Virus record (IMG/VR): IMGVR_UViG_3300021960_000095 | Span: 1 to 52,777 of that record | DNA: 52,777 nucleotides | Source of the DNA: a virus | Lineage: Duplodnaviria; Caudoviricetes | Reading direction: 5' to 3' (one strand) | In this document: piece after piece, positions 3,025-39,638 of the stretch | How positions within the stretch are numbered: position 1 is the first letter of the stretch | Layout: each line of letters begins with the position of its first letter | The notes under the pieces: generated by a model | What the model saw: the letters and a program-made list of their open reading frames with translations, nothing else | Databases searched by the model: none | Told to the model about the DNA's origin: nothing | Position numbers and translations under genes: made by a program

Positions 3025-3445
3025 ATGTCTGTATGAAAAAGAACGGATTGAGTATGAAACAATTAAATAAAGCTAATCGACTGTCTTAAAAAAAGGCCAT
3101 AAAACGGAAAGCTTGAATACTTCGGGTGGGTAGCCCAAAAAGGTCAAGCAAGTACTAATTAAAAATCCTAAAATAAGGGCAAAATCGCTGGCTATTCAAC
3201 AAAACAGCATAAGAACCATTTCGGTGTGTCATCGGTGGGGAAAGTAAGTATTGCACTGACTTTGCGTTGTTGATGTGTCGTTTGTCTAAATCGAAATGTT
3301 AGGGGGGTGGCAGTTTAAAATTGTAGCGTTGCATAGGGAGCAATTGATAAAAAAGACTTAGGTCTCGACCCTTGTAAGTCACTGAAAAGAATTTAATTGT
3401 TTTAAGTTTGGATTGGCCCAGTAGACATACTGGGTCATCCTTACA
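3025..3445 (+). ncRNA. candidate large structured RNA (~420 nt), class unknown
   Basis: No ORF of 60 aa or more in the track. Nested helices 3057-68/3391-3402 (12 bp perfect), 3079-85/3309-15, 3166-71/3299-3304; local hairpins; GNRA-capped 3' hairpin 3414-3437. Confidence 0.6.
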
Positions 3446-3474
3446 AAGAATTTAAGCAAACAGAAAGGGCAGAA

Positions 3475-4146
3475 ATGTCAAGTTATACAGACCAAGATAA
3501 AAATTATACACAATGCGCAAAGTGCGCAGAACCATTGGAACCAAATAACCAAGGTGCATTAGATATTAGCTATAACGGTGGTTATGGTGATTTCGTAGAC
3601 AATTACGATGGGGAAACTCTTTTCTTTCGTCTTTGTCACAAACACGCTCATCAATTTACCAACTGGTTAGGTAATCCATCAGCAATACACCCAAGTGCAG
3701 GTCATTCTCACAATGGTGCAGAAAAAGGTTTTTGGTATGGCCATATTGGTTGGGACCAAAAAACTTGGTTATCACACCTACGTACTTTTACGTGGTGGCT
3801 ATTTAAAACACGTAGCTTTAAAAAAGCTTGGTCTGAATTAGTTTATTCAGTTAAAAGTCACATTACGTGGACTCGTTCTAATATTAACGATTCAAGTACA
3901 CCAGTTGTTTGGTCACAATTCTTTTTTAAATTGTTTTTCTTAGACAATGCTTATGCTGGTACAGTTACTGCATTGAAGCGTAAGCTCAATGTGTGGAAAC
4001 ACCAAAAAGCTAAAAAAATATATCGTAAATACAAGTCTCTTTACTCAGAAATTTGGGAAAGTGCTATTTACGGTAAACTCACAGAATCCGAAAAATCTTT
4101 AATTATGGATATTGGTGAAGCTTTAAAACAGCAAGAAGAAGAGTAA
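3475..4146 (+). CDS. hypothetical protein with N-terminal CxxC...CxxH putative zinc site
   Basis: 223 aa; CAKC and LCHKH; Trp-rich; AAAGGG upstream. Confidence 0.7.
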   Translation: MSSYTDQDKNYTQCAKCAEPLEPNNQGALDISYNGGYGDFVDNYDGETLFFRLCHKHAHQFTNWLGNPSAIHPSAGHSHNGAEKGFWYGHIGWDQKTWLSHLRTFTWWLFKTRSFKKAWSELVYSVKSHITWTRSNINDSSTPVVWSQFFFKLFFLDNAYAGTVTALKRKLNVWKHQKAKKIYRKYKSLYSEIWESAIYGKLTESEKSLIMDIGEALKQQEEE

Positions 4147-4155
4147 TCTTTTTCA

Positions 4156-4184
4156 AAAGGGGGTATTGCTACAATATCCCCTTT
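4156..4184 (+). terminator. hairpin / likely terminator
   Basis: AAAGGGGGTATTG-CTA-CAATATCCCCTTT just after the 4146 stop. Confidence 0.7.
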
Positions 4185-4205
4185 AAAGCTGTTTATAATG
4201 AACTA

Positions 4206-5468
4206 ATGCCTAAAGATATTTTAGAGAATGTACAAGCGTCAAAACAGAGGGTATACAATATAACATTCCCCCCTCTTCACGATGCCCAAAAAGAAGTTCA
4301 CGATTCTAAAGCTCGTTGGAAAATACTTTGTGCTGGTCGACGATTCGGAAAATCTCGACTTGGAGTACAGATGTGTTTAGAAATAGCATTAGCTGGTGGA
4401 CGTGCTTGGTGGGTAGCTCCTACATTCGCAATATCTAGAGTTGGTTGGCGTGATATTCAAGCAGCAGCCGCATCTTTTCCAAAAGAAATGGGTGTAAACA
4501 TCAAAGTAGGCGATATGCAAGTAGATTTTAACAATGGTGGCTTTATTGGTGTTCGTTCTGCTGATAATCCACAAAGACTTAGAGGTGAGGGTCTTGACTT
4601 CCTTGTTATGGATGAGGCCGCTTTCGTAAAAGAGGAAACTTGGACAGAAGTACTTAGACCTACTCTTACTGAAAGAAAAGGTTCTGCATTATTCATCAGC
4701 ACCCCAAAAGGAATGGATAATTGGTTTTATAGATTATTTGAAAGAGCAAAAACACAGCCCGACTGGGAGAGATTTCAATTTCCCTCTACTTCTAATCCTT
4801 TAGTTGAAGAATCAGAAGTTGAAGCAGCTAAACAAGAAATTGGTTCTCTCGTATTTGCTCAAGAGTATATGGCTCAATTTATATCTGAGGGTTCTCAGAT
4901 GTTCAAACAAGATTGGTTTAGATATTATAAAGAGGGTGTAGGACAAGTTTTTGCTGATGGAGAAAAATACGATTTAAACGATATGACATTATTTGGTTCA
5001 GTTGACCTTGCAACATCAACAAGAGAATCTGCTGACTATACAGTTATAGGAAGCTTTGGACTTCATCAACCAACAAAAAAACTTTTTATTTTAGATATGA
5101 CCATTGCAAGAATGGAAGCACCCGATATTATTCCAGCAATTAAAAGACACGTTGTAAAAAACAATCTTGAATGGGTGGGAATTGAAAAAGCAGGTTTTCA
5201 GCTAGCTTTAGTACAATTTGCAAGAAGAGAGGGTCTTCCAGTTATTGAATTAAGGGCTGATAGAGACAAGCGACAAAGAGCACTTCCTTTATCTGCTAAG
5301 ATGGAAGCAGGATTAGTTTATCTTCCTAAGAATGAAGAGTACTCTTGGGTAGCTGACGTAGAACGTGAACTTCTCACGTTTCCAGTTGGTGCTCACGATG
5401 ACATTGTTGACTGTATATCATATGCTGTCATACAAGAGAAACGTCAAAGGAAGTGGGAAGCATATTAA
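4206..5468 (+). CDS. terL: terminase large subunit
   Basis: Walker A (AGRRFGKS), Walker B (LVMDEAA), ISTPKG coupling motif, nuclease VDLA...D and HDDIVD. Confidence 0.95.
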   Translation: MPKDILENVQASKQRVYNITFPPLHDAQKEVHDSKARWKILCAGRRFGKSRLGVQMCLEIALAGGRAWWVAPTFAISRVGWRDIQAAAASFPKEMGVNIKVGDMQVDFNNGGFIGVRSADNPQRLRGEGLDFLVMDEAAFVKEETWTEVLRPTLTERKGSALFISTPKGMDNWFYRLFERAKTQPDWERFQFPSTSNPLVEESEVEAAKQEIGSLVFAQEYMAQFISEGSQMFKQDWFRYYKEGVGQVFADGEKYDLNDMTLFGSVDLATSTRESADYTVIGSFGLHQPTKKLFILDMTIARMEAPDIIPAIKRHVVKNNLEWVGIEKAGFQLALVQFARREGLPVIELRADRDKRQRALPLSAKMEAGLVYLPKNEEYSWVADVERELLTFPVGAHDDIVDCISYAVIQEKRQRKWEAY

Positions 5469-5470
5469 TT

Positions 5471-8110
5471 ATGGCTGAAGAGAAAAGTTTTTACAGAAGA
5501 GCGGTTGAATACTTACAAGCACCGCCCGAAAGACAAGTTAAAGGTTTAACATATAATCAAAGCACAAATAGTGCTTTAGATTCTGCTGTATTCGGATACA
5601 ATACAAGTTCGGGTGCATTTCCAGCTAAATTACTAGAAGATATTGGCGAGGGAACTGGTAATTCAGCTGTTGTCGCTTGTATCAATGTTTTAGCTACCGC
5701 TTTCGCAGAACCAGTCCTTAAAGTAATGACTAAAACTACTGATGGTGATGAAGAGCAAATGCTTCATCCAGTCGAAAAACTTTTACAAAGACCTAATCCT
5801 TTTACATCGGGTCCTTTACTTTCCCACTACATCGTTACAGCATTAAACGCTAGCGGTGACGCATATTTATTAAAGATAAGAAATTCTTCGGGCCGAGTCA
5901 TACAACTAATCCCAATGATGCCCGACAGAGTTACCCCTCGTGGCAATGAAGATGAATTAATTACTCATTACGAGTATTACGGTTCATCTAAGACAATGGG
6001 CGAATTTGTTGTTCTCAAGAAAGACGATTTAGTTCATATCCGACAAGGAATAGACCCAAACAATCACAGACGTGGTTTTGCTCCTCTTAAATCTGTTTTA
6101 AGAGAACTCGTAGGTGATGAAGCTGCTGGTCAATATGCAACAGCATTACTTCACAATATGGCAGTGCCAGGCGTTATTCTTTCTCCGAAAGATGACTCTA
6201 ACGGCGGACCATCAAGAGAAGAAGCAGAAGCTATTGCTAAAATGTATAAATCTAAATTTGGTGGTGCAAATAGAGGCGCTCCTATGGTTCTTACTGGACC
6301 AATGGATGTTAAGCCAGTATCTTTTTCTCCAGACCAAATGGATTTAAAAGAACTTAGAAGACTTCCCGAAGAGAGAGTTTCCGCAGTTTTAGGTGTCCCA
6401 GCAATTCTCGCTGGACTCGGAGCTGGACTAGACGCGGCGACCTACAACAATACAAAAGAATTAAGAGAGTTTTTTACTGAGCAAAAACTTATTCCTTTAT
6501 GGAAAACAGTTGCTAACGAACTTACACATCAGTTACTTCTTTCAGATTTTACAAGTGATGAAGCTACTTACTGTGCTTATGACTTAAATATGGTCAGAGC
6601 TTTAGCTTCCGATAAAGATTCAACATACAAGAGAATGAATATGGCTGTTGCTGGTGGTTGGGCTACAATCGCAGAAGCTAGAAAAGCAGCTCATTTAGAT
6701 GTTGATGAAACCCACGATGTTTACTTAAGACCACTCAATATGGTTGCTGTACCTATTGAACTTGGTAATCAACCATATCAAATGAATGAACCTAGTGATG
6801 ATGAAAAAGTTATTGACTTAAAAGCAACTCTTTCAACAGTAGATTTTGGAGTTGAATCAGTAAGACAAGGTGGGGTTGCAATGACTGAGGAACCAAGAAA
6901 CGAAGAAAAATACATTGCCGAAATGCCTAATGGTGCTTTTTGTATTATCGACCACGATACTGAAAAAGTAATTGAATGTTTTAAAACAGAGGATGCTGCT
7001 GAAAGAGCATTAGCCAATATGAAAAAATCAATAAATGAAGAGAAAGCAGCCGCTATTTCTTCTAAAGTTCAAAAAACTTTACAAAAGAAAGTAAAAGACC
7101 ATAATGCGAAAAATCCAAAATATAAAGCAAGTTATGGAATGCTGGCAGCTGTCTTCAGACGAGGTGTTGGTGCCTATAGAACTAACCCAGCTTCAGTGCG
7201 AGGTAATGTTACTGGCGCAACCCAGTGGGGAATAGCCCGTGTTAACGCCTTTATAAAAGGTCTTAAAGGTAGCTTTCCAAGAAAACCATTTGACCAAGAT
7301 TTACTTCCTAGTGGTCATCCTCTCTCATCCAAAAAAAATGCAGAGAATATTATTGACGAATTAAAAGTTTCAACAGAAGAAGCAGAAGCATTACTTTACT
7401 CAGAAAGAATGAAGAATGAAACTTCTGAAAAAGCAAAATTATCTGACCTCAAGGTTGGAGATACTGTTAGTTGGTCAATAAATAAAGACCCCGACCCACC
7501 ATCAACTGTTCACGGTGTAATTAAATCACTTAACGCAAGAGATGACAAAGCAACAATGCAAGTATGGGCCATAATGGATGATGGTTCTCATCTTAAAACA
7601 GATAGGAACGTCACAATGGAAGTTTCTAAATTAAAGAAAATTAAAGATTGGCGAAAAGGTGCAAAAGCAAAAGATGATATTACTAACTTCCCTAAAAGCG
7701 GAGACAATCAAAAAATATCTCTTTCTAACTCACAATACAAACAGTTTCCCGATTTCAAGTACGTAAAAGACTTGAAAGAAAACTACCCAACAATTTGGCG
7801 TAGAGCTGGCACTGGAGGAAACCCTCCTACTTCATTCACTGGTAATGATGCATTCAATAGATGGTCTTCATACAAAAAAGGTGATAGAGGTCCAGCAGTT
7901 CTTTCTTGGGTTAAAAGACGAGAAAGATTTATGAACCGTCACAAGAATAACAATAGACTTAACGGTGCTATTGCCGCTATGAAGTGGGGTGGAGTTCTTA
8001 ATATTGGGGTATCTGAGATGAAGAGTTTAGTTAACGAGCAGAAGAAAAAAGTTGATGCTCGAAAGAAAAAAGCTGAAATTTTAATATCTCAGAAAACCAC
8101 AGAAAAATAG
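5471..8110 (+). CDS. portal protein with long multi-domain C-terminal extension
   Basis: HK97-family portal motifs (LLQRPNPF, GDAY, DLVHIR, GFAPL, VLGVPAILAG, TYNN, IAEARK) in the first ~450 aa. ATG 5471 preferred over GTG 5453. Confidence 0.93.
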   Translation: MAEEKSFYRRAVEYLQAPPERQVKGLTYNQSTNSALDSAVFGYNTSSGAFPAKLLEDIGEGTGNSAVVACINVLATAFAEPVLKVMTKTTDGDEEQMLHPVEKLLQRPNPFTSGPLLSHYIVTALNASGDAYLLKIRNSSGRVIQLIPMMPDRVTPRGNEDELITHYEYYGSSKTMGEFVVLKKDDLVHIRQGIDPNNHRRGFAPLKSVLRELVGDEAAGQYATALLHNMAVPGVILSPKDDSNGGPSREEAEAIAKMYKSKFGGANRGAPMVLTGPMDVKPVSFSPDQMDLKELRRLPEERVSAVLGVPAILAGLGAGLDAATYNNTKELREFFTEQKLIPLWKTVANELTHQLLLSDFTSDEATYCAYDLNMVRALASDKDSTYKRMNMAVAGGWATIAEARKAAHLDVDETHDVYLRPLNMVAVPIELGNQPYQMNEPSDDEKVIDLKATLSTVDFGVESVRQGGVAMTEEPRNEEKYIAEMPNGAFCIIDHDTEKVIECFKTEDAAERALANMKKSINEEKAAAISSKVQKTLQKKVKDHNAKNPKYKASYGMLAAVFRRGVGAYRTNPASVRGNVTGATQWGIARVNAFIKGLKGSFPRKPFDQDLLPSGHPLSSKKNAENIIDELKVSTEEAEALLYSERMKNETSEKAKLSDLKVGDTVSWSINKDPDPPSTVHGVIKSLNARDDKATMQVWAIMDDGSHLKTDRNVTMEVSKLKKIKDWRKGAKAKDDITNFPKSGDNQKISLSNSQYKQFPDFKYVKDLKENYPTIWRRAGTGGNPPTSFTGNDAFNRWSSYKKGDRGPAVLSWVKRRERFMNRHKNNNRLNGAIAAMKWGGVLNIGVSEMKSLVNEQKKKVDARKKKAEILISQKTTEK

Positions 8111-8153: not shown

Positions 8154-9398
8154 TTGAATAAAGAATCTAAAAATTTCGAGTTTAAAGCAATTGATGATGT
8201 TAAGGGTTCAGTGGAAGCTGTCTTTTCAGTATTTAACAATATAGATACTGATGGTGACGTTGTGTTACCAGGCGCTATAAAAAGTGGTTTTAAAGATAAC
8301 CAAGTGCCTATGGTCTTTGCCCACAAGTGGGACCAGCCAATTGGAAAAGGTGTCATCTCTCAAGATGATGACAAAGCAACATTTACAGGTAACTTCTTTA
8401 TGGATACCGAGGCTGGCAAAGAGGCTTATCACCTTGCTAAAGGAATGGCTGACTTACAAGAGTGGTCGTTTGGATTTAGAATAAACGATGCTGAAGTCAA
8501 GGAATTCAAAAGCGAAGACGGTGAAGAAATTAGCGCAAGATTTTTAAAAGACCTCACAGTATTTGAGGTTTCCCCAGTCTTAGTAGGTGCAAATAGAGAA
8601 ACCTACACATTAGAAATCAAATCGGGAGAAGAAGCTGTCTATGAAGATTCCCTAAAAGCTCTTCCTAACGATTTATTTGAAACACAAGAAGAAGCAGAGA
8701 AGAGAGCTGAAGAACTAGGTTGTTCTGGTTCTCATAAAGAAATGCACGAGGGCAAAGAATATTATATGCCTTGTGATAACCACACTTCTTACTTAGCTTC
8801 AATGGAAAAAAGTTTGAGGAATGACGTCGAAGAAAAAGACGCTTCCGAAGATTCTGAATCTAATACTAGCGTGCAAGGTATGAGATTTTCAGACGAGGTA
8901 AAAGATGTGCTTGCTGCATTAGATAGCCTCATTGTAAGAGCAACTAGCATAGGCGAGTTGCGAAAGGGAGAGGGCAGAAAGTTGTCAGATAATGCAACTT
9001 CCGCACTTAGAGCAGTTCAAGAAGACTTGAACGATGCTTGGGCCGAAATTGACCAACTCATTGAGGAAGTCAGTGAAATCCCAGTATCTTCTGATGAAGA
9101 TGCAAAAGAAGAAGAATCAACAGATACAGAAACTCTTGAGGCCGAGGAAATCGTCTCAGAAGTTGAAGAATCTTCTACTGAGGAAATCGTAGAAGAAGCA
9201 GTAGCTGAAGATTCATCATCTGAAGTATCCGAATCTGAAGAAGCATCTGAAGAATCTATTGAAGAGGAAATAGAAATCGCTGAAGCAGAAGCTTCAGTTG
9301 AAGAAATTCCAGCTCAAGAGGAAGAAGATGACTCTGAATTGTTTGCAGCCACTCAGCAAATACTTGCTGATGCTGTAATTGCGGAAATCGACGAATAA
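8154..9398 (+). CDS. HK97-family prohead protease with small Cys/His insert and acidic tail
   Basis: DTDGDVVLPGA, PMVFAH, WSFGF, LFEVS-like EVSPVLVGAN motifs; TTG start after GGGGA; extended -10 TGTTAAAAT at 8112-8120. Confidence 0.92.
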   Translation: MNKESKNFEFKAIDDVKGSVEAVFSVFNNIDTDGDVVLPGAIKSGFKDNQVPMVFAHKWDQPIGKGVISQDDDKATFTGNFFMDTEAGKEAYHLAKGMADLQEWSFGFRINDAEVKEFKSEDGEEISARFLKDLTVFEVSPVLVGANRETYTLEIKSGEEAVYEDSLKALPNDLFETQEEAEKRAEELGCSGSHKEMHEGKEYYMPCDNHTSYLASMEKSLRNDVEEKDASEDSESNTSVQGMRFSDEVKDVLAALDSLIVRATSIGELRKGEGRKLSDNATSALRAVQEDLNDAWAEIDQLIEEVSEIPVSSDEDAKEEESTDTETLEAEEIVSEVEESSTEEIVEEAVAEDSSSEVSESEEASEESIEEEIEIAEAEASVEEIPAQEEEDDSELFAATQQILADAVIAEIDE

Positions 9399-9430: not shown

Positions 9431-10687
9431 ATGGCTGAAATTAAAGAGCTAAGAGAAAAAGTCGCTGCTAAAAGAGCTGAATTAAAAGAGCTTTTCGAGG
9501 CACAAGAAGACGGCAAGTACTCAGCCGAGCAAAAAGGAGAAATCCAATCTCGCAATGAAGAACTTGCAAGTCTAGTAGAAGAAGTAAATATTCTTTCTGC
9601 TAAAAGTGCTAACGAAAAAGCTATGAATGAAGATTCAGAGCCAGTTAGCGGCGGATACGCCGAAGAGGCATCCGAACCAATTTCAACAATTGGTGATGCA
9701 TTCGTTAAATCAGATGCATACAAAAACTACGTTACAAAAGGCGTAGGCGGAATTGACTCAACAGTCAAATTTAACCCAATGGGTTATAAAGCCACTTTAG
9801 GCGCGGGTACAACTGCTTCATATCCACCAGAGGTCTTAAGACAACCTGGTGTCATTGAAGAAAGTTTAAGAGACCCAAATGCAGTTATTGGACTTTTCGA
9901 CCAAATCGAAACAGACCAAAATGCATTCCAGTACCTTGAAGAAACCACTTTCACAAATGCTGCTGCTGAAGCAGCTGAAGAGGGTGCTGCTGCTGAAGCA
10001 GAACTTGACTTCACAGAGCAAACTGCTGCAATCAGAAAAATTGCAGTTTTCTTGCCAGTGACAGAAGAGTTACTCGCTGACGTTAGCGGAATTCAAGGTT
10101 ACGTAAATTCAAGATTATCAACAATGATGAGACTTCGTTTAGACGGACAGTTACTTAGTGGTGACGGTACCGCTCCTAACTTAGAAGGAATCCTCGATGC
10201 TGGTAAAACTCTTGTAAACTCTGTTGACTACTCCACATACGTAAGCGGTGGCGGAGAATTAAACAGAATGGGTGCAATCTATGAAGCAATCACTGACATT
10301 AGAACAGGTGCTTTCATAGAGCCAGATGCAATCGTAATGCATCCAAACGACTGGTACCAAACAGTAACAGCTGTTAGCGACATCACAACAAGCGGTTCAA
10401 AGAACCCATTGTTCGTTGCTGCAGGTGGATTTGGTGCTGGACCACAAGCATCACTTTGGGGATTAAAAGTTGTTCCTACAACTGCAATCTCTGAGGGTAC
10501 AGTGCTTGTCGGTAGATTCGGTGGCGGTGAAGCTGCTCACGTAGTTATGAAACAAGGTATTGATATCGCTGTTTCTGACAGTCACTCTGACTTCTTTTCC
10601 AAAGGAAAAGTTGCAATCAGAGCAACAATGCGTGTTGGTTTCCCAGTCTACAAACAAAAGGGATTTACCAAAATCACAAACTTCTAA
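9431..10687 (+). CDS. major capsid protein (HK97 fold) with N-terminal delta/scaffold domain
   Basis: Position after the protease; coiled-coil N-terminus; VTEELLAD, LLSGDG, IVMHPNDW, LWGLKVV; AAGGAG SD. Confidence 0.95.
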   Translation: MAEIKELREKVAAKRAELKELFEAQEDGKYSAEQKGEIQSRNEELASLVEEVNILSAKSANEKAMNEDSEPVSGGYAEEASEPISTIGDAFVKSDAYKNYVTKGVGGIDSTVKFNPMGYKATLGAGTTASYPPEVLRQPGVIEESLRDPNAVIGLFDQIETDQNAFQYLEETTFTNAAAEAAEEGAAAEAELDFTEQTAAIRKIAVFLPVTEELLADVSGIQGYVNSRLSTMMRLRLDGQLLSGDGTAPNLEGILDAGKTLVNSVDYSTYVSGGGELNRMGAIYEAITDIRTGAFIEPDAIVMHPNDWYQTVTAVSDITTSGSKNPLFVAAGGFGAGPQASLWGLKVVPTTAISEGTVLVGRFGGGEAAHVVMKQGIDIAVSDSHSDFFSKGKVAIRATMRVGFPVYKQKGFTKITNF

Positions 10688-10760: not shown

Positions 10761-11006
10761 ATGGAATATATAGTAGCAAAGAAAGACATTTGGAAATTAC
10801 AAGACGGAACAATCTTTGAGGGTTCTGCTAACGAACTTCCAAAATCAAACGCTTCTAAAATAGCAAAAGCTGGAATGGAATATTCAGTTGCTTATTTAGA
10901 GAATAACGGCTGGAAAAAAGAAGCTCCTAAAAAAGCTGCACCTAAAAAAGCTGCACCAAAAGCAGAAAACAAAGCTGTTAAACCAGAAGACTTAGAAGAC
11001 AAGTAG
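10761..11006 (+). CDS. small head-associated protein
   Basis: 81 aa with PKKAA repeats and ENKA tail; typical position after a capsid gene. Confidence 0.7.
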   Translation: MEYIVAKKDIWKLQDGTIFEGSANELPKSNASKIAKAGMEYSVAYLENNGWKKEAPKKAAPKKAAPKAENKAVKPEDLEDK

Positions 11007-11900: not shown

Positions 11901-12629
11901 ATGGAGGGCGTCGAATTTAAGACCGAGTATTCGGGTTTAGACGAAGTAGCACCAATACAACCAGCATCTCACTTTATTCCCCAGTGGTTTAAAGATATGC
12001 CTAGTCATATGGAATTTCCAGCTGGAGAGAGATTAAACCCTAGATATCAAAATATATTTGGTAAAACAGGTAAAATTGCTGAAAAATTTTATGGCTCAAC
12101 AATGAAGCGTTGCCCAGCAGTTGTTGATTTTGTTACTGAGGGATATATTATTCCTTACTGGACTGATACTTTAATACAGAGAGATGGAATGTCTCTTGAA
12201 GCAGATTCAAAAGATTGGCCAAAAAACATATCTTTTCACGATGCTAAACAAATACCCACATATCCTCTAGAAGAGGGTGATTTTCCTCACGCAGTCAAAT
12301 TTCACTCTCCTTGGTATTTTTATACGCCCAAAAACTACTCTCTCCTCTTCATACAGCCGTTTTACCAGTTTGAAAAGAGATTTACGGTACTACCCGCCAT
12401 AGTTCATACAGATAGTTGGCACGAAGTTAATTTTCCTACAATTATTCACGAAGAAAGCTTTACAATAAAGCAAGGAACACCATTTATGCAGGTTATACCT
12501 TTTAAAAGAAGTAAACTAGATATGGTTATGTCTTATTTGAAACAAAAAGATAAAGATAGATTAGATAGAAATAACTTATTTGTACAAACTAATTTTATTG
12601 GTGGATATAGAAAGGGAACAAATGGCTAG
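11901..12629 (+). CDS. DUF6065-like protein
   Basis: IPQWFKDMP, MKRCPAVVDFVTEGYIIP, FHSPWYFYTPKNYSLLF, IKQGTPFMQVIPFKR. Family name from memory. Confidence 0.6.
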   Translation: MEGVEFKTEYSGLDEVAPIQPASHFIPQWFKDMPSHMEFPAGERLNPRYQNIFGKTGKIAEKFYGSTMKRCPAVVDFVTEGYIIPYWTDTLIQRDGMSLEADSKDWPKNISFHDAKQIPTYPLEEGDFPHAVKFHSPWYFYTPKNYSLLFIQPFYQFEKRFTVLPAIVHTDSWHEVNFPTIIHEESFTIKQGTPFMQVIPFKRSKLDMVMSYLKQKDKDRLDRNNLFVQTNFIGGYRKGTNG

Positions 12630-12861
12630 ATATGACTACAAATGCCGTAGTTGTGAGCATATTTTTGAAGTAATACATTCTATTCAAGAAGACCCAAAGA
12701 TAAAATGTGAAAAATGTAAAAAATTATGTGATAGACAGTTGCCAACAACAGTTCATTTATACGGTACAGTTGGTATTGATTGGAATAGTGACCCAAGTAA
12801 AGCATCATCTAGTATGCAAAAAAGAGCACAAGACGCTAAAAAAAGAAAAAGAAAGTTCTAG
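12622..12861 (+). CDS. FmdB-family zinc-ribbon protein
   Basis: MARYDYKCRSCEHIFEV...CEKC; ATG 12622 with AAGGGA SD. Confidence 0.85.
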   Translation: MARYDYKCRSCEHIFEVIHSIQEDPKIKCEKCKKLCDRQLPTTVHLYGTVGIDWNSDPSKASSSMQKRAQDAKKRKRKF

Positions 12862-12956
12862 AGTTTTTCTTTTCTAGTTTCTTTTATAGAACGACACACA
12901 GCACAAATAACTTGACCCTCTACAGTAGGTCTTCCGCAATCTAAACATTCATTCAT
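12858..12956 (-). CDS. micro zinc-finger protein (32 aa)
   Basis: MNECLDCGRPTVEGQVICAVCRSIKETRKEKL; ATGA overlap with the SET gene. Confidence 0.55.
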   Translation of the reverse strand: MNECLDCGRPTVEGQVICAVCRSIKETRKEKL

Positions 12957-13273
12957 AATCTAGTAGCTACCTTGTATGTTGTGTATGTAAGAGTTAACTC
13001 TTCTTCGGGCATTATATCTATTTTAGCAATTAAAAATCTCTTGTCTCCAATATCAATAGTTTCACAGTTAGAATCTTCACTATGATTGATAAATCCACCT
13101 AAAGGAGTCCTAATCAATCCGTGTTGGTATTCACTACTTAAAACGTGTGAACACCCAAAATTAAATCCCTCTTTAAATATTGCAGTAGAAAATAAACCTA
13201 ATCCGTGAATTTTAGATGTTTTTATTGTCAACCCTATAGGTAAAGGGTAGTACATTTCGTTATCTTTTTCCAT
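12953..13273 (-). CDS. minimal SET-domain protein (putative lysine methyltransferase)
   Basis: SKIHGLGLF, GGFINHS..NC and EEELTLTY SET signatures. Confidence 0.88.
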   Translation of the reverse strand: MEKDNEMYYPLPIGLTIKTSKIHGLGLFSTAIFKEGFNFGCSHVLSSEYQHGLIRTPLGGFINHSEDSNCETIDIGDKRFLIAKIDIMPEEELTLTYTTYKVATRL

Positions 13274-19620: not shown

Positions 19621-22600
19621 TTGGAACAAGCAAATGTAATCGGTAGGTTAGCGTTCTTAGCTAACATCGTCGGAGATGGAGCTGTAAAAGGTATCCAACA
19701 AATGGCTAGAGGCACAGGTGCCGCTATGACCAAACTTGCTTCTGCAGTTCCAGCAGCAGCATTCGCAACATCAGCATCTGCATTAGCAGCTGTTGGTGCA
19801 GCTCTTGTTGGTGGTGTAAAAGCAGCAGCAGACTTTGAAGAATCATTCGCTTTAGTTAGAAAAGTTCTTGCTAGAGCTAGTGAACAAGAACTAGGCGATA
19901 TCCGACAAGCAATATTAGATTTATCAACAGAGATACCAGTTGCAGCTGGTCAATTGGCACAGTTAGGTTCTATAGCTGGTCAGTTAGGTGTTGAAGTACA
20001 AAACATTCCACAATTCATAGACACAGTAGCTAAATTAGGTGTCGCAACAAACATGACAGCTGAACAAGCTGCTTTCTCAGTTGCAAGGCTTGCAAACGTA
20101 ACAGGAATCGGAGCTGAGAACGCAGACCAACTAGCTAACGTATTAGTTAGATTAGGTAACAACACTGCGGCAACAGAATCAGAAATTACATTATTAGCAA
20201 CACGTTTTGGTGCTGTTGGTAAGATTGCTGGTTTAACTGCAGACCAAACATTAGCTTTCTCTGCATCTGTTAGAGCAACAGGTACAGAGGCCCAAGCTGG
20301 TGCTACCGCATTACAGAAGTTTTTCTTGTCTCTACAACAAGCAGCAGCACAAGGTGGTAATAGATTAAAAGCTTTTTCTGATGTAGTAGGAATGAGTTCA
20401 GACGAATTCAGAAAATTAGCTAGAGAAGATATTGCTGAAGCTGCAGCACAATTCGTTGAGGGATTAGATAGTATTGGTAATTCGGGAGGAAACGTACAAA
20501 AAGTTCTTAACGATGTAGGTTTAGGTTCCGTTCGTGTATCTAAAGTTATGCTTTCTTTGTCAGCTGATACGGAAGAATTAAGAAGTAACTTATTTTTAGC
20601 AAATGACGAAATGGAAAGACAGTCTGCTTTAAACAATGAGGCAGAAAAACGATTCGGTACATTGATACAGCAGATTGCAAGATTTAGAAATGTAATTAAA
20701 AAGGTTCTTATAGACATAGGTGAGGGATTAGTTCCAGTATTAGCTGAATTTGTAGGTAACTTAGCTGACGCTATATCGGGTGCTAAAGAATTTCAAGAAG
20801 CTTTAAGTACAGAAAAAGTTTTAAATTTAGCTAAAGCTCTTGGTGTACTAACTGCAGCTTTAGGTCTTTCTAGACTACAATCTGCAGTAATTCTTTTTAA
20901 CACTATATCAGCAGCTTTAACAACTATGACTAGTGCATCTTTCATTGCAGCAAATGCTTTCAAGATGTTGTTTATAGCTTTTAAACCTTTCTTGATTGCT
21001 GGAGCTATTATCGGTGGTATCACAGCAATAACAAAAGTATTCAGTAACTTTATTGAAAAAACTGCTATCGCTAAAAGAAATCTTGATGATTTCAAAGAAG
21101 CAATGGATAGCATAAAACTTTCTAATGAAGACATAGATATATCTGATGCAATGGCCGAGGGTTTATTTGACAATCTAGAAGAAGAAACACAACAAGCACT
21201 CAAAGATGCTTTTGGAAGTAATACTCAAAATGTTTTAAAAGACATACTTGGTAATACTTCTAGAAATATCTCAGATGTTATATCTGAAACCTTTGCATTG
21301 ATGCAAAAAAATACATTGATATTAACAAGTGCAGGTACAGGTAGCGACGAGGCTAAACAAGCTTTAAGAGAAAGAATATCTTTGATGGAAGAAAATCTTA
21401 AAGTTGTTGAAGAAACATTTGGAACTGAATCTGAAATAGCTTTGGCTATATCAAGAACAATTAGGCTTAGTAAGGTAAGACTAGAAGAGGGTAGGCTTTT
21501 AAATGAATCAGAAGAAAACCTTTTAAACAATGCACTAGAACAAGTTGATGTATTTAAAGTACTCGCAGATTTACAAAATGTAATTCTTGACCAAAGAATG
21601 GAAGAATTAAAAATTGCTGTTCGAAACAAATTACTGGAACAAGATAGCAGAGTTAGAGTTGCAAGCATACTTAAAGATGATGAATCAATACTTGCTGTAG
21701 CAAAAGAATTAGCTAAAGAAGATGCAACAATCGCTAAGTTGATTGGTTATGTTGCAGAAGACACAGAAGAGATAGCTGAAAACTTTAATGTGTTTGCGGG
21801 TGTTTTAGAAAAAGCAAATGACTTTGCTACTGAATTAAATGCTCAATTAAAACCTTTAGAAGCATTAGAAGATTTAGAAGATGCTCAAAAATCTCTTAGA
21901 GAGGCTAAAAAAGATATTGTCGAATTAGGTAAAGAAGAAGTCGAAGTTCAAGAAGAGCTAGCTTCAATAGAAAGAGAACTTAATGATTTATTACAAGATG
22001 GAAAGTTTCTATCAGACGATATCTTAGCTATTAAAGAAGAAGAACTAGAACTTGCTGAAATGATTAAAGCAGTCAACGAGGGTGTTGAGCTTTCATATCA
22101 AGAACAGCTAAAACTTCTTAAACTGGAAAGAGAACAAAGAATACTCCAACGTGCTGCTGAACAGGGAACTTTAAGTGATGCAGATGTACAACTAGGTGCT
22201 ATCCAAGAAAGAATAGACCTACTAAAAAGCGGTGGTGTAACAGAAGAGAATATTATAGAAAAAACAGCTAAAGTTCAAGATACTAAAAACCAAGCTCAAA
22301 TAAATGCAAATGAAAGAATTACTGAACTTTTAGACCAACAACAAGATGCAAATGAACGTTTACTTGAGATTGATGATGAATTAGTTGAAGCATTAGATTC
22401 AGTCAAAGATGCTAATTTAGAAATTTTGCAAGCCAGTAATAAAGTAACTATTGCTTTTGCTGAATTAGAAGATAAAGGTACAGGAAACATACGAAGACTT
22501 GGAGAAGCTCTTGGATATCCTAAATCTCAACTAGATGGAATAATTTCAAGAATCCAAGTAGCTCAAAAACAAATAGGATTACTACCAGCATTTAACACAG

Positions 22601-22920
22601 CGGCATCCGTTGGTGTAGACCCAGCAACACTTCAAAGTGGCAATAATTTATTTGAAGTTCCAAGAGCTATGGGTGGAATGGTAAGAATGGGACAAAGAGC
22701 TCTTGTTGGAGAAAGAGGGGCAGAAATTATTAAACCAATGCCTCACGGAGTTATGGTTACACCAATGCAAGGTGGCGGTAGTCAACCAATAAATCAATAT
22801 GTTAACCTAAACATTACAGGACTTCCAACTGACCCAATGGCAGCAAGAAAGATTGCACAAAATATTCAGAGAGAATTAAATAAATTGAAATCAGACGGTA
22901 GGAGTGGAATTGTTAGATAA
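19621..22920 (+). CDS. tape measure protein (TP901-like core)
   Basis: 1099 aa helical Ala-rich; AADFEES, LVRLGNNTAATESEI; C-terminal RAMGG..LVGERGAE. Confidence 0.93.
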   Translation: MEQANVIGRLAFLANIVGDGAVKGIQQMARGTGAAMTKLASAVPAAAFATSASALAAVGAALVGGVKAAADFEESFALVRKVLARASEQELGDIRQAILDLSTEIPVAAGQLAQLGSIAGQLGVEVQNIPQFIDTVAKLGVATNMTAEQAAFSVARLANVTGIGAENADQLANVLVRLGNNTAATESEITLLATRFGAVGKIAGLTADQTLAFSASVRATGTEAQAGATALQKFFLSLQQAAAQGGNRLKAFSDVVGMSSDEFRKLAREDIAEAAAQFVEGLDSIGNSGGNVQKVLNDVGLGSVRVSKVMLSLSADTEELRSNLFLANDEMERQSALNNEAEKRFGTLIQQIARFRNVIKKVLIDIGEGLVPVLAEFVGNLADAISGAKEFQEALSTEKVLNLAKALGVLTAALGLSRLQSAVILFNTISAALTTMTSASFIAANAFKMLFIAFKPFLIAGAIIGGITAITKVFSNFIEKTAIAKRNLDDFKEAMDSIKLSNEDIDISDAMAEGLFDNLEEETQQALKDAFGSNTQNVLKDILGNTSRNISDVISETFALMQKNTLILTSAGTGSDEAKQALRERISLMEENLKVVEETFGTESEIALAISRTIRLSKVRLEEGRLLNESEENLLNNALEQVDVFKVLADLQNVILDQRMEELKIAVRNKLLEQDSRVRVASILKDDESILAVAKELAKEDATIAKLIGYVAEDTEEIAENFNVFAGVLEKANDFATELNAQLKPLEALEDLEDAQKSLREAKKDIVELGKEEVEVQEELASIERELNDLLQDGKFLSDDILAIKEEELELAEMIKAVNEGVELSYQEQLKLLKLEREQRILQRAAEQGTLSDADVQLGAIQERIDLLKSGGVTEENIIEKTAKVQDTKNQAQINANERITELLDQQQDANERLLEIDDELVEALDSVKDANLEILQASNKVTIAFAELEDKGTGNIRRLGEALGYPKSQLDGIISRIQVAQKQIGLLPAFNTAASVGVDPATLQSGNNLFEVPRAMGGMVRMGQRALVGERGAEIIKPMPHGVMVTPMQGGGSQPINQYVNLNITGLPTDPMAARKIAQNIQRELNKLKSDGRSGIVR

Positions 22921-29578: not shown

Positions 29579-32500
29579 ATGGCAGCAAAAACACCAATTA
29601 GAGGAGATTATAACGGTTCCGATTTAGTCGGATTATCCGAGTTTCTAGCTTCTGAATTCGTAGATATTTCAGATGGTGGTACTGGCGCTACTAATGCTTC
29701 TGATGCAAGAACAGCTTTAGGATTAGCAATTGGTTCAGACATTCAAGCATATCACGTCAACCTTGCTGATATATCTTCACTTGCAGTAACTGATGGCGGA
29801 ATAATTGTTGGCGATGGTAATAACTTTGTATTAGAAACAGGAGACACAGCTAGAACTTCTTTAGGACTAGGTACAACTGACTCCCCAACATTTAACAATC
29901 TAATACTTTCTGGAAACCTCACTGTTAGTGGTACAACAACCTCAATCAACACAGAAACAATTAATTTAGCTGATAACAATATAGTTTTAAATAGCAACGC
30001 TACTGGTTCTGCTTTAGAAGATGCAGGTATAACTATTGAGCGTGGAGATGACCCTAATAAAACACTTATCTGGGATGAAACTAATGACTATTGGACAGTA
30101 GGTTCTGAAACTTTTGTAGCTGCTAACTTTGCTGGTAGTTTAAGTGGAACTTCTGTATTAGCTGATGGTGTAACTGCAACTACACAAGCTGCTTTAGATA
30201 ATTCAACAAAAGTAGCTACAACTGAATATGTAGATTCTGCAGTAGCACAAGAAAACGAATTAGCAGAGATGAACGATGTTACTCTTACTAATTCACAAAA
30301 TGGAGACTTTTTAAGGTATAACGGTAGTGTTTGGATAAACGACGCTGTTGATTTGGCTACAGATACCGTAGGTGATTTCGTACAAAGTATTACTGGTGGA
30401 GACGGTCTTGCAATAGATGTAACTTCTGGTGAGGCACAAACCCCTACACTTTCTGTAAATGTAGACGATAGCTCTATAGAAATAAGCTCTGATAGCTTAC
30501 AAGTAAAAGCTCTTGGTATTACCAATGCAATGCTTGCAGGCTCAATTGAAAATGCAAAATTAGTAAACAGTGATATAACTTTTACAGACGGAACTACTCC
30601 AACTGTTGCAAGTCTTGGAGATACGATTACTTTTACTGGTGGCACTGGCGTAACAATTGCTAACACTGCTGGTAACTTTGATTTCAGTTTTGACATTGCA
30701 GAAGTAAAATCACAAGTAGACGAATATGCTCAAGACGCATTATACGATGCTTTCGTAGCTGGTACACAAACTTTAATTACTGTTGCTTATGATGATAATG
30801 CAAATTCAGTAAGTTACACAGTTGAAAATGATTTATCACTATATGACAATACTACTTCTGCTTTCATAACATTAACAAGTTTATCTGCTCCAAATGCAGA
30901 TGGTGTAAGTTATGACAATGCTAATGGTCAAATAACCTTAGCCAACATACCAAATTCAAGTCTTACAAACAGCAGTGTATCAGTAAGTGATGGTACAACT
31001 TCAACTGCTATTTCATTAGGCGACACAATAACATTTACAGGTGGAGCTGGTGTAGATATAGTCAATACAGCTGGTACTTTAGACTTTACTTTCGACCTCA
31101 CAGAAGTTGCTTCTGAAATAACTGAAGCTGCTCAAGACGCAATAGACGCTTTACTTACTGCTGGAACTCAAACAAGAATAACAGTTTCTTATAATGATGT
31201 CGCTAACTCACTTAGCTATACAGTAGATGATGACTTAGCTAATTACGATAACACCAACACTGCTTTCATAGATTTAACAGATTTATCAGCAACATCTGCT
31301 ACTGGTGTTACCTATGATAACTTAACTGGTACTATTGCCCTTGCTTCAATACCTAATTCAAGCCTTACAAATAGTTCTGTAACCATTAATGCTAATGCTC
31401 TATCACTTGGTGGAACATTAACATTAGTTACAGATGATATAGCAGAAGATGTTTCGCCAACTAATCTTTACTTCACAGATGAAAGAGCACAAGACGCGAT
31501 TGATGCAGCATTTAGTGCAGGTACTCAAACTAGAATTACCTACGCTTATGATGATAACGCTAACTCATACTCATTAACAGTTGATGATGACTTATCAAAC
31601 TACGACAACACTACTTCTGCATTTATTACAGCAGATAGTACAGATACACTTACAAATAAAACTTTTGATGCTAACGGTACTGGCAACAGTATTTCAAATA
31701 TAGAAGTTGCTGATTTAGCTGGTTCTGCTGTTGTTATAGAGTCTGAGGGGATTGCTTCAAATGATAATGATACAACATTACCAACTTCTGCAGCAGTTAA
31801 AGATTATGTAGACACACAAATTACAGCTCAAGACTTAGACATTACAGACGGAACAACAACGTCTGCAGTTGATTTAGATTCACAAACATTAACAATCCAA
31901 GGTACTGCTAATCAAGTAGATGTAAGTGTCAGTGGTCAAGTATTTACTGTTGCATTACCAAATGATGTAACTATAGCTGGTAACTTAACTGTACAAGGTA
32001 CTACAACACAAATAGATTCAAACACAGTTAATATCGGCGACAATATCTTAGTACTTAACTCAGACGAAACTGGTACTCCATCACAAAATGCAGGTATTGA
32101 AATTGAAAGAGGAACTGATACAAATGTAAGTTTGGTGTGGGACGAAACAAATGATTACTGGACAGTAGGTAGCAAAGATTTTGTAGCTACAAATCTTACT
32201 GGTACATTGAGTGCTACCTCTGTTTTAGCAGATGGCGTTACAGCTACAACTCAGAGTGTTAATGATAACTCTACTAAAGTTGCAACCACAGCTTATGTGG
32301 ATGCACAAGTTACATTACAAGACTTAGACTTCGCAGGTGATAGTGGAACTGGACAAGTAGATTTAGATAGCCAAACATTAACTGTTACTGGTGGAACAGG
32401 AATTACCACAACAGCATCATCACAATCTGTAACTATAGACATTGATTCAACTGTAGCTACATTAACTGGTACACAAACCCTAACTAACAAGACTTTAGGC

Positions 32501-39381: not shown

Positions 39382-39638
39382 GCACAATAAGAGTATCACA
39401 AATTGAATCGTTAGATGCAAATAATACAGCTTTAATAGTCAATTCAGACTTACAGATGAACGCTCCGCTTACGATAATAAATAAAACTCAAGCTGAAATA
39501 GATGCATTAACAGGAATTCCTAGAGGTCAAATAATATTTAACACAGATTCGAAGACTTTAACCCAGTATAATGGGGTTAAGTGGATTGAGTATAATCAAT
39601 CTCAAGTAAACATAGGACTGGTGGTAGCACTTGGCTAA
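39378..39638 (+). CDS. short fibre-adaptor-like protein
   Basis: Shares MS.I.V..I and T..EIDAL...G.I.FN.D......YNG..W modules with fibres. Confidence 0.6.
   Translation: MSTIRVSQIESLDANNTALIVNSDLQMNAPLTIINKTQAEIDALTGIPRGQIIFNTDSKTLTQYNGVKWIEYNQSQVNIGLVVALG

Follow-up and report, generated by a model that had tools for sequence, protein, structure and literature searches.

A modular extension of a phage portal protein with lysine junctions that resemble the capsid maturation site

Analysis of the IMG/VR virus record IMGVR_UViG_3300021960_000095 (Duplodnaviria; Caudoviricetes), all 52,777 nucleotides of which are referred to here as the window, shows that the portal protein of this marine phage carries a chain of small modules joined at lysine residues beyond an HK97-type core. 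We are able to establish the anatomy of this extension, the shuffling of its modules among relatives, the conservation of the junction lysines, the likeness of the first junction to the capsid maturation site and the attachment of the same modules to other proteins of the head interior. Based on these comparisons we propose, with confidence evenly divided for and against, that the prohead protease would sever the extension from the portal, probably also into pieces, so that small basic domains would remain in the head at 12 copies.

The portal is encoded by a single uninterrupted ORF of 885 aa on the plus strand, as are all features described here, beginning at a GTG at position 5453 (5453..8110). 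The real start is probably the ATG at 5471, giving a protein of 879 aa, as relatives open with MAEEKSF and the Atlas record begins at residue 7. Residues 71-412 (5663..6688) belong to the HK97-type portal family Phage_portal (PF04860), with 196.3 bits against a Pfam cut-off of 39.1 (E 9.6e-58), and PHROG portal families match the ORF at E 1e-57. The core runs on to L456 (nt 6820), and phage portals align solely to residues 44-484 of the query. The HK97 portal is 424 aa long and has no extension, and thus some 430 aa of the 885-aa ORF are extra, in agreement with the initial annotation, which had described a portal core followed by an extension. The portal ORF has no match to MuF (PF04233), and no separate ORF of at least 50 aa is found on the plus strand in the gap between the portal and protease genes.

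The extension consists, in order, of a leader (L0), modules M1 and M2, a linker, modules M3 and M4 and a basic helix, with module pI values of 9.3-10.8. L0 (K457-K486, 6821..6910) starts at the junction K457/A458 (DLK-ATL, 6821-6826) and ends at EEK486/Y487; it appears to copy the capsid site and the start of the capsid N-arm, and is probably disordered, because model confidence is low there. M1 (Y487-K524, 6911..7024) is a two-Cys mini-domain (C-x3-H-x7-C) with three strands and a helix predicted, and is followed by the linker KSINEEK (7025..7045), which closes with the junction EEK531/A532. M2 (A532-K628, 7046..7336) is helical, basic (pI 10.8) and DUF5824-like, with the motif RGVGAYxTNPxSVR...QWxxARVN...DxDLLPxxHP. 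A mobile acidic linker element (IDELKVSTEEAEAL...; IDELKVSTEEAEALL...; 7337..7432) then closes with the junction SEK660/A661, ahead of M3 (A661-K738, 7433..7666), which is modeled as an SH3-like (Tudor/KOW-like) beta-barrel and whose tail includes the junction GAK738/A739 (7664-7669). M4 (A739-G853, 7667..8011) is helical and basic (pI 10.3), with the motif TNFPxxGDxxxISLxNS...GGN...GNxAF...RExxxxRH...KWG, and a C-terminal basic helix (aa 854-885, 8012..8107, pI 9.9) completes the protein. All four module boundaries given in the initial annotation (DLK-ATL, EEK-Y, EEK-A and SEK-A) hold in the portal ORF, and the junction before M4 is added to them here. The 30-aa leader, the mobile linker element and the C-terminal helix are also additions to that map.

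These modules are autonomous units, as had been suggested earlier, because each occurs alone or reordered in relatives and AlphaFold2 folds each of them separately, with pLDDT of 61-68 for M1, about 85 for M2 and mostly above 90 for M3 and M4. The earlier reading of M2 as a DUF5824 (PF19141) relative holds in part: the match in this protein, at 15.6-18.9 bits (E 0.0017-0.019), lies below the gathering cut-off of 25, while two relatives, P0143 and P0166, pass it with 26.4 and 26.8 bits. DUF5824 is matched at E<=0.001 in 23 of 49 long relatives (best 1.6e-8). As a lead, 48-70% of the members of Atlas neighbors carry this domain, and the nearest Atlas clusters carrying it are 96-100% viral, with Uroviricota as the commonest phylum. 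For M3, Foldseek returned NusG KOW, SGF29 Tudor and SMN Tudor with a probability of 1.0 but E of 0.013-0.04, and VIA gave Z scores of 7.0-7.8 (rmsd 1.7-2.7 A over 55-80 residues), where Z below 8 may reflect a common arrangement. With no family match in Pfam, M3 would resemble an SH3-like barrel (Tudor/KOW/PWWP) as a fold rather than as a family member, which agrees at that level with the Tudor/SH3-like unit proposed initially.

The remaining structural searches returned matches at background level. M1 was matched by VIA to the solved structures 3bid (Z 5.4), 6q2z (Z 4.7) and 2k7i (Z 4.5), which we take to be members of one family, UPF0339/DUF1508 (YegP-like); these scores are at noise level, as is the Foldseek match to 6q2z (E 0.89), the M1 model itself being of low confidence. 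M4 has no family match in Pfam, and its assignment to DUF6321, an Atlas lead with a score of 0.88, was dropped as Pfam gave it no backing. The best VIA matches of M2 in a wide search were sigma-factor region 2-like helices (Z 5.5-5.8), and the single VIA match of M4 was the C-terminal domain of mimivirus R596 (Z 6.8, 110 residues), both at background level for helical folds and both obtained with two-domain models, not with either domain alone. Sequence searches of the PDB gave E of 0.1-0.5, or noise, for an M1+M2 profile and nothing for an M3+M4 profile, and Foldseek found nothing in the PDB at E<=0.001 for either two-domain model. Pfam and PHROG profiles identified no enzyme, toxin or known conflict effector family in the portal ORF; among distant relatives, PARP, 2H/LigT or GNAT domains occur in single proteins and PAP2 in two. 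Searches by name found no literature on DUF5824 or DUF3721.

A comparison of the protease and capsid genes with those of HK97 shows the same basic maturation system: an S78-family protease, an N-terminal delta domain on the capsid protein and a site of Lys followed by a small residue in the same register. The protease ORF (8154..9398, 414 aa, S78 domain at aa 8-152) is 33% identical to HK97 gp4 over about 100 aa. Unlike HK97, it also contains an extra DUF3721 module (PF12518; aa 175-210, 8676-8783) that belongs to this family with 43.5 bits against a cut-off of 27 and stands after DSLK168/A169 (nt 8655-8660); past this module a coiled region leads into a long, acidic tail of Glu and Ser. The major capsid protein (9431..10687, 418 aa) has the HK97 fold and a 120-aa delta (scaffold) domain, and is 32% identical to HK97 gp5 (E 1e-33). 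HK97 gp5 is described as cut at K103/S104 (PMC10275583). The predicted maturation site here, GYK120/A121 (9788..9793), is in exact register with it, both standing 18 residues ahead of the aligned PG motif, which by homology bears out the earlier identification of K-ATL as the capsid maturation site. The lysine is kept by motif in 42 of 46 related loci, the other four falling outside the motif pattern used. We found nothing on S78 protease specificity in PMC3483164 or PMC11445458.

Unlike in HK97, this capsid-type site is repeated in the portal. In each of the five loci tested, the best local alignment between the portal leader and the phage's own capsid protein falls at the maturation site. 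Shuffled sequences reached the observed score in none of 2000 trials for locus L022 (z 10.3) and in one of 2000 each for L033 and L014, as compared with 56 of 2000 for this phage, a weak result, and 871 of 2000 for L019, where the likeness is absent. The leader thus appears to copy the capsid site and the N-arm that follows it, strongly in sister clades and weakly in this phage. In L022 only 6 of 12 identical residues use the same codon; since the codons differ, the likeness between leader and capsid is kept at the protein level.

Conservation of the junctions extends to the later modules. A lysine precedes M1, as K/Y, in 52 of 52 distinct contexts, and Lys-Ala is found before M3 in 68 of 70, before M4 in 68 of 83, before M2 in 61 of 82 and before DUF3721 in 7 of 15; most of the listed exceptions keep the lysine, with S, Q, V, I or L as the next residue. 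Lys-Ala at the junctions exceeds chance, with a frequency of 74-97% in junction windows against a background of 10.6% (2475/23400) in random 10-aa windows of the extensions. The junction lysine is kept regardless of which module stands upstream. The initial annotation had named unconserved lysine junctions as evidence against its reading; they are in fact retained even though relatives differ in which modules they have and in what order. Two of the junctions, NEEKA and AKAKDDI, lie in segments with pLDDT below 50 and are predicted to be accessible. EEK/Y may be no cut site, because the model has the first M1 strand starting at Y487. Three Lys-Ala pairs (K558, K699 and K873) are internal to the extension, and if cleavage happens these would need folding as protection. 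Covariation of the P1' residue between capsid site and junctions gave no signal across a wider set of lineages: the two agree in this phage (K/A with K/A) and in a Salinibacter phage (K/D with K/D), but differ in clade B, where the capsid has K/T and the junctions K/Q or K/A. Since nearly every lineage examined has Lys at capsid P1, the test discriminates nothing at this position.

Among relatives, the modules are permuted, gained and lost, often with a change of order, and they are carried by several head proteins. Among 149 distant cluster representatives, portal fusions of the modules account for 19, S78 protease fusions for 30 (in 7 of which a capsid protein is joined as well) and MuF fusions for 9, and a Pfam search of 49 long representatives found portal domains in 16, S78 in 13, capsid in 8 and MuF in 8. 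Some distant relatives have the modules between portal and MuF domains in one chain, and attachment to the S78 protease is seen at either of its ends. Fusion to portals, MuF and the protease places the modules inside the head, as the initial annotation had supposed. DUF3721, found here in the protease ORF, is part of the portal extension in sister clades. M2 and M4 are approximately 40% identical to proteins of Salinibacter phages, and isolate phages bearing the modules include Salinibacter, Roseobacter and Actinomycetia phages. Matches to M2 and M4 taken jointly amount to 1181 clusters at 50% identity (E<=0.001), and M2 alone has at least 587 confirmed stretches in IMG/VR. Three candidates for naturally split extensions (P0094, P0097 and P0098) were set aside; of these, at least the P0098 ORF is cut by a contig end, the match in L071 starting at base 74.

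Combining these observations, we suggest the following route. The portal C-terminus, directed toward the head interior, bears a string of self-folding domains, M1-M4, on disordered linkers, of which the first appears to imitate the capsid maturation site (Lys/Ala-Thr-Leu and the start of the N-arm), with a Lys, usually Lys/Ala, before every later module. The portal would bring twelve copies of the whole array into the prohead. The S78 protease, while trimming the capsid delta domain after K120, would also sever the array at K457/A458 and would probably cut between modules as well, yielding 12 free copies each of mostly basic domains of 4-13 kDa beside the DNA. That the array is cut, and that its domains stay in the head, bind DNA and leave together with it, are steps that we infer, DNA binding from the high pI of the modules (10.3-10.8). 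Ejection of the released domains into the host is a guess on our part, and the strong conservation of M2 and M4 fits a core role in the head better than a fast-evolving injected effector. A wider version of this proposal, which we put forward tentatively and consider rather less than probable, holds that M1, M2, M3, M4 and DUF3721 form a widespread head-lumen set, hung interchangeably by tailed phages on whichever protein comes to lie within the prohead (the portal C-terminus, MuF or either end of the S78 protease). The portal copy of this clade would then be a true polyprotein, its basic pieces of 4-13 kDa would be small enough to exit through the tail channel in folded form along with the DNA, and the conserved pair of M2 and M4 would serve generally in genome escort or end protection. 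On this wider view, the copy of the N-arm might in addition let the array bind to the shell subunits that surround the portal, in the manner of an encapsulin cargo-loading peptide.

Parts of this route have parallels in other phages. Internal proteins of T4 are cut by the prohead protease and ejected into the host. Internal proteins of the T4 and phiKZ type are encoded by separate genes with their own targeting sequences, and are cut at Glu-type sites by a different protease family, whereas here the cargo would lie within the portal chain and be bounded by Lys-type sites. Head-internal proteins of phiKZ and SPN3US are likewise described as cut by the prohead protease and ejected (PMC10052503, PMC7411985). 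The Mu portal gp29 (gpH) offers a precedent, as its last 124 residues are missing from the virion, a loss attributed to protease I (PMC11915804). That piece is short and, in the excerpted text of PMC11915804, is not described as a domain chain, in contrast to the approximately 430 aa and four or five folded modules found here; unlike the trimmed piece of Mu, these modules recur on other head proteins. Polyvalent proteins, with several domains per polypeptide, are encoded among phage head genes and enter the head through MuF or portal fusion (PMC5512222). The portal ORF likewise combines at least two domains in one polypeptide in a packaging and head gene context, but the profile search found in it none of the conflict effectors that polyvalent proteins carry (nucleases, ARTs, methylases, peptidases), and no recognized enzyme, toxin or anti-restriction domain. 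MuF polymorphic toxins and portal-effector fusions are near kin, the relatives here including portal-module-MuF fusions. In comparison with these, the modules of this phage are small and well conserved, and they have a capsid-type site at their junctions, a logic not seen for polyvalent proteins in the excerpted text of PMC5512222.

The array could instead escape cutting and remain attached at the portal crown, a flexible and basic internal appendage comparable in function to the barrel of the P22 portal or to an internal core. There it would touch the packaged DNA and act in, for example, DNA-end anchoring, sensing of head filling or exit guidance. Basic modules at the DNA-facing end of the portal would suit such a role, single portal-modules-MuF chains could be simple tethers, and the lysine before M2, which is kept far beyond the clade, may be structural. 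We nevertheless consider a permanent tether rather unlikely: it would have no need of a leader in which some 20 residues surrounding the capsid cut site are reproduced, the protease itself carries the same modules at either end, the N-termini of stand-alone M4 and M2 proteins fall no more than a few residues from the predicted cuts, and Mu is a precedent for portal trimming. Lysine junctions without any proteolytic role, as by-products of domain N-terminal caps or of recombination, would be the least probable of the explanations we weigh. The lysine could be intrinsic to the N-terminus of M2, since it persists across very distant lineages and many different linkers and since capsid P1 is nearly always Lys; low-complexity Lys/Glu-rich (EEK-type) linkers are widespread in module-bearing proteins, and module order changes frequently. 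Against this, the only DNA repeats at the junctions of this genome are short purine-rich matches, one P1 residue is common to five unrelated modules, and the first junction has an extended motif in common with the capsid site.

Cleavage might also take place with a different outcome, the array acting only as an assembly aid that promotes shell nucleation or draws capsid protein or protease to the portal vertex, and then being removed and either degraded or expelled, as the delta domain is, with no delivery to the host. The leader would then be a mimic of the N-arm or of the protease substrate. Such a role would account for the likeness of the leader to the capsid N-arm and site, for the co-occurrence of the modules with scaffold-type proteins (S78 and S78-capsid fusions), for a protein of a Salinibacter phage that combines M4 and M2 and is encoded directly upstream of the capsid gene, in the usual scaffold position, and for the high conservation of M2 and M4. 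Judging from HK97 biology, however, well-folded domains of 9-13 kDa (pLDDT 85 to above 90) that lack conserved internal Lys-Ala sites would be poorly suited to digestion into small peptides or to passage through shell pores, and stand-alone module copies occur without scaffold context. We therefore regard a purely scaffolding role as unlikely, and favor release of the domains by the prohead protease and their retention in the head.

To our knowledge, only in a few model phages is it understood how proteins are loaded into the head and delivered along with the genome. The arrangement described here suggests that a loading rule could be legible from sequence, as cargo fused to the portal with its pieces separated by the capsid's own cut site. 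If this is true, it would constitute a simple means, open to testing and perhaps to engineering, of packaging chosen proteins in 12 copies per virion, and under the polyprotein reading a single protease would both mature the shell and free the cargo. In that case, two large families without assigned function, the DUF5824-like M2 and the unnamed M4, would be placed in a context for the first time, as would DUF3721; all three would then be head-interior proteins of abundant marine siphoviruses.

The window spans a complete contig of 52,777 bp from a siphovirus-type phage (tape-measure gene at 19621-22920) whose head genes lie in a row: TerL (4206-5468), portal (5453-8110), S78 prohead protease (8154-9398, + strand) and HK97-fold capsid (9431-10687). 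The portal ORF is unbroken and encodes 885 aa. The Pfam Phage_portal match covers aa 71-412 (E 9.6e-58) and matches of named phage portals stop at about residue 484; as the HK97 portal is 424 aa long, approximately 430 portal residues are extra. The GTG start given for this ORF (5453) overlaps the end of terL, and as relatives start with MAEEKSF and the Atlas record begins at residue 7, the true start is probably the ATG of MAEEKSF at 5471. The S78 protease shares 33% identity with HK97 gp4 across about 100 aa. Its ORF is 414 aa long versus 225 aa for HK97 gp4, and contains the S78 domain, a DUF3721 module, a coiled region and a tail of ~100 aa (aa ~310-414), nearly all Glu, Ser, Ala, Ile and Val, possibly with a scaffold-like or targeting role.

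Other ORFs were noted in the window. Right after the capsid gene, an 81-aa ORF (10761-11006, +) with a repeated APKKAAPKKAAPK tail matched no family in a Pfam search and is possibly a small basic head protein or a decoration protein. In a 93-aa ORF (12580-12861, +), Pfam detects a zinc ribbon (CxxC...CxxC; Zn_ribbon_8, E 1.9e-11). Beside the head-tail genes, a 106-aa ORF (12953-13273, -) matches the SET domain family (PF00856 in Pfam; 31.1 bits versus a cut-off of 22.4) and is a candidate minimal phage-encoded SET-type methyltransferase. Two very large ORFs (29579-35812 and 39631-45207, +; 2077 and 1858 aa) hit PHROG families of tail-fibre connectors and virion structural proteins (phrog_677, E 2.3e-10; phrog_5838, E 7e-187).

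The initial annotation described the portal extension as modular, and relatives, AlphaFold2 models and junction counts confirm and extend this observation. Based on its boundaries, relatives and two models (alignments of 46 and 42 rows), the extension begins with a leader of low model confidence (L0, K457-K486) and a mini-domain of three strands and a helix (M1, Y487-K524; pLDDT 61-68), in which two Cys and one His are invariant across all copies listed. A linker ending EEK531/A532 (a slash between residues marks a junction or cut site) leads to M2 (A532-K628), which is helical (pLDDT about 85, pI 10.8), followed by an acidic linker element, IDELKVSTEEAEAL..., that is mobile among relatives too. 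M3 (A661-K738) is a small beta-barrel, M4 (A739-G853) is helical (pLDDT mostly above 90, pI 10.3), and a basic terminal helix completes the protein. The pLDDT drops below 50 exactly at the junctions NEEKA and AKAKDDI; unlike these, K486/Y487 adjoins the first strand of M1 in the model, and thus L0 and M1 may be a single unit.

By profile comparison M2 is DUF5824-like, as the initial annotation had suggested: the match is sub-threshold in the window's portal, above threshold in two relatives, and found by Pfam in 23 of 49 long relatives. Foldseek and VIA searches with the two-domain model that includes M2 returned no clear solved fold among their matches. M3 can be overlaid on barrels of the KOW and Tudor types (Foldseek probability 1.0, E about 0.01-0.04; VIA Z 7.0-7.8), which agrees with the Tudor/SH3-like unit first proposed, a likeness that in the model is at fold level only. 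M4 had no Pfam family, no relative in a PDB sequence search, and no clear solved fold among the Foldseek and VIA matches to the M3+M4 model. The same model gave nine BFVD matches at E<=0.001, and its BFVD matches include, by name, a prohead protease, XkdF (E 2.1e-3) and a head maturation protease (E 9.2e-3). No paper found in a literature search mentions DUF5824 or DUF3721. Our best guess, from charge alone, is a putative DNA-binding role for M2 and M4.

When 8000 candidates of 486-1549 aa were scored, 914 proved to be relatives of the extension at E<=0.001, nearly all with a portal domain, and close relatives are encoded in 72 IMG/VR loci. Module order is L0-M1-M2-M3-M4 in the window phage and L0-M1-(DUF3721 x0-2)-M4-M2-M3 in a large sister clade, while some further relatives lack M1; DUF3721 is located in the protease ORF in the former (43.5 bits) versus the portal extension in the latter. 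Of 1.84 billion cluster representatives searched exhaustively, 1181 matched at E<=0.001 (476 at 1e-10); the matches cover M2, M4 or both, and the proteins are 84-1270 aa long. In the 149 distant representatives listed, profiles built in this analysis, with limited sensitivity, detected modules fused to portal in 19, to S78 protease on either side in 30 (seven run on into capsid) and to MuF in nine (six are portal-modules-MuF), with modules alone detected in the remaining 97. A Pfam tally on 49 long representatives (portal 16, S78 13, capsid 8, MuF 8, Portal_Mu 4, Phage_portal_3 3; also PAP2 in two, and PARP, 2H/LigT, GNAT and ChaB once each) was consistent with these carrier counts. The prohead interior houses portal C-termini, MuF and the prohead protease, and this distribution therefore indicates that the modules are head-interior domains.

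Salinibacter phage 12_10 has an M4-M2 protein of 852 aa (M4 first; 32% and 40% identity, respectively), encoded directly upstream of its capsid gene. A TnpB/Cas12f-like ORF (positions 3233-4477 of this locus, L001; Pfam Cas12f1-like_TNB E 1e-20, OrfB_IS605 E 1e-3) lies among its head genes, with a MuF-like gene on one side and the gene of the M4-M2 protein on the other. Distant portal and protease fusions (P0142, P0143, P0145) carry an extra conserved module of roughly 120 aa between M2 and M4, with the motif YRLPIAKM...ELKIVFRGV.AAGSS.RGEPKF, that is not in the window.

Module order and content vary among homologues and the junction Lys is kept, regardless of which module stands upstream. In distinct junction contexts across 181 unique family sequences, which are mutually related and so not independent trials, the M1 junction reads K/Y in 52/52, and Lys-Ala occurs upstream of M3 in 68/70, before M4 in 68/83, before M2 in 61/82 and before DUF3721 in 7/15; most listed exceptions keep the Lys, with S, Q, V, I or L as the next residue. 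The background frequency of Lys-Ala is 10.6% of random 10-aa windows from the same extensions. The window phage extension has seven Lys-Ala pairs, four at junctions; the other three lie within modules or the terminal helix, and two of these are visibly not conserved among relatives. The pattern [ENDS][ES]KA occurs only four times in 14,442 residues (window + strand ORFs >=100 aa): two of these are in the portal extension, one is in the delta domain of the capsid (NEK/AMNED) and one in TerL, counts too few to carry weight.

The K-ATL noted initially in both portal and capsid falls, in the capsid, at the predicted maturation site. Identity between the window capsid and HK97 gp5 is 32% (E 1e-33), and ungapped extension of the alignment places K120/A121 (GYK/ATLG...QPGVI) on K103/S104 (FNK/SLGS...IPGII), where gp5 is cut according to PMC10275583. 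The site Lys is present in 42 of 46 related capsids by motif pattern; the other four fail the pattern. The likeness of leader to capsid extends beyond K-ATL, as in the sister clade (leader ESK/ATLTTIGLPPEVERE versus capsid ETK/TTLTTTGYPPEVLRQ), and the top local alignment falls on the cut site in 5/5 loci. Shuffles equalled or exceeded the observed score in 0/2000 for L022 (z 10.3), 1/2000 each for L033 and L014, 56/2000 for the window and 871/2000 for L019. The L022 stretches have 38/54 bases in common and use the same codon in only 6/12 identical residues, and thus are not a recent DNA copy.

The junction Lys could alternatively be part of each domain itself. In 80 loci retrieved with M2, Lys precedes M2 even in very distant lineages and capsid P1 is Lys almost everywhere, while P1' shows no general covariation between capsid site and junction; it is the distant-lineage Lys and this absence that make such a reading tenable. 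P1' agrees in the window (K/A with K/A) and in Salinibacter (K/D with K/D) and disagrees in clade B (capsid K/T versus junction K/Q or K/A). Glu/Lys-rich linkers, frequent in these proteins, also count against cleavage. That the junctions are recombination joints is not supported, as DNA repeats were not found at those of the window.

The initial interpretation of a protease-released polyprotein is supported in part: modular cargo inside the head, its junction Lys conserved, holds, with clipping and ejection as a proposal. The portal would carry twelve arrays into the prohead, where the S78 protease would cut each at K457/A458, a step we slightly favor, and perhaps at later Lys sites, which is somewhat doubtful. 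Freed folded pieces of 4-13 kDa would remain in the head, where their basic charge would keep them on the DNA; they might exit with it, although we consider such exit unlikely. Trimming of the portal C-terminus has precedent in Mu (PMC11915804), and effector domains fused to portal or MuF are termed polyvalent proteins (PMC5512222). New here are the repetition of a capsid-type site in the portal, a portal copy of the capsid site and N-arm, and a conserved module set common to portal, MuF and protease.
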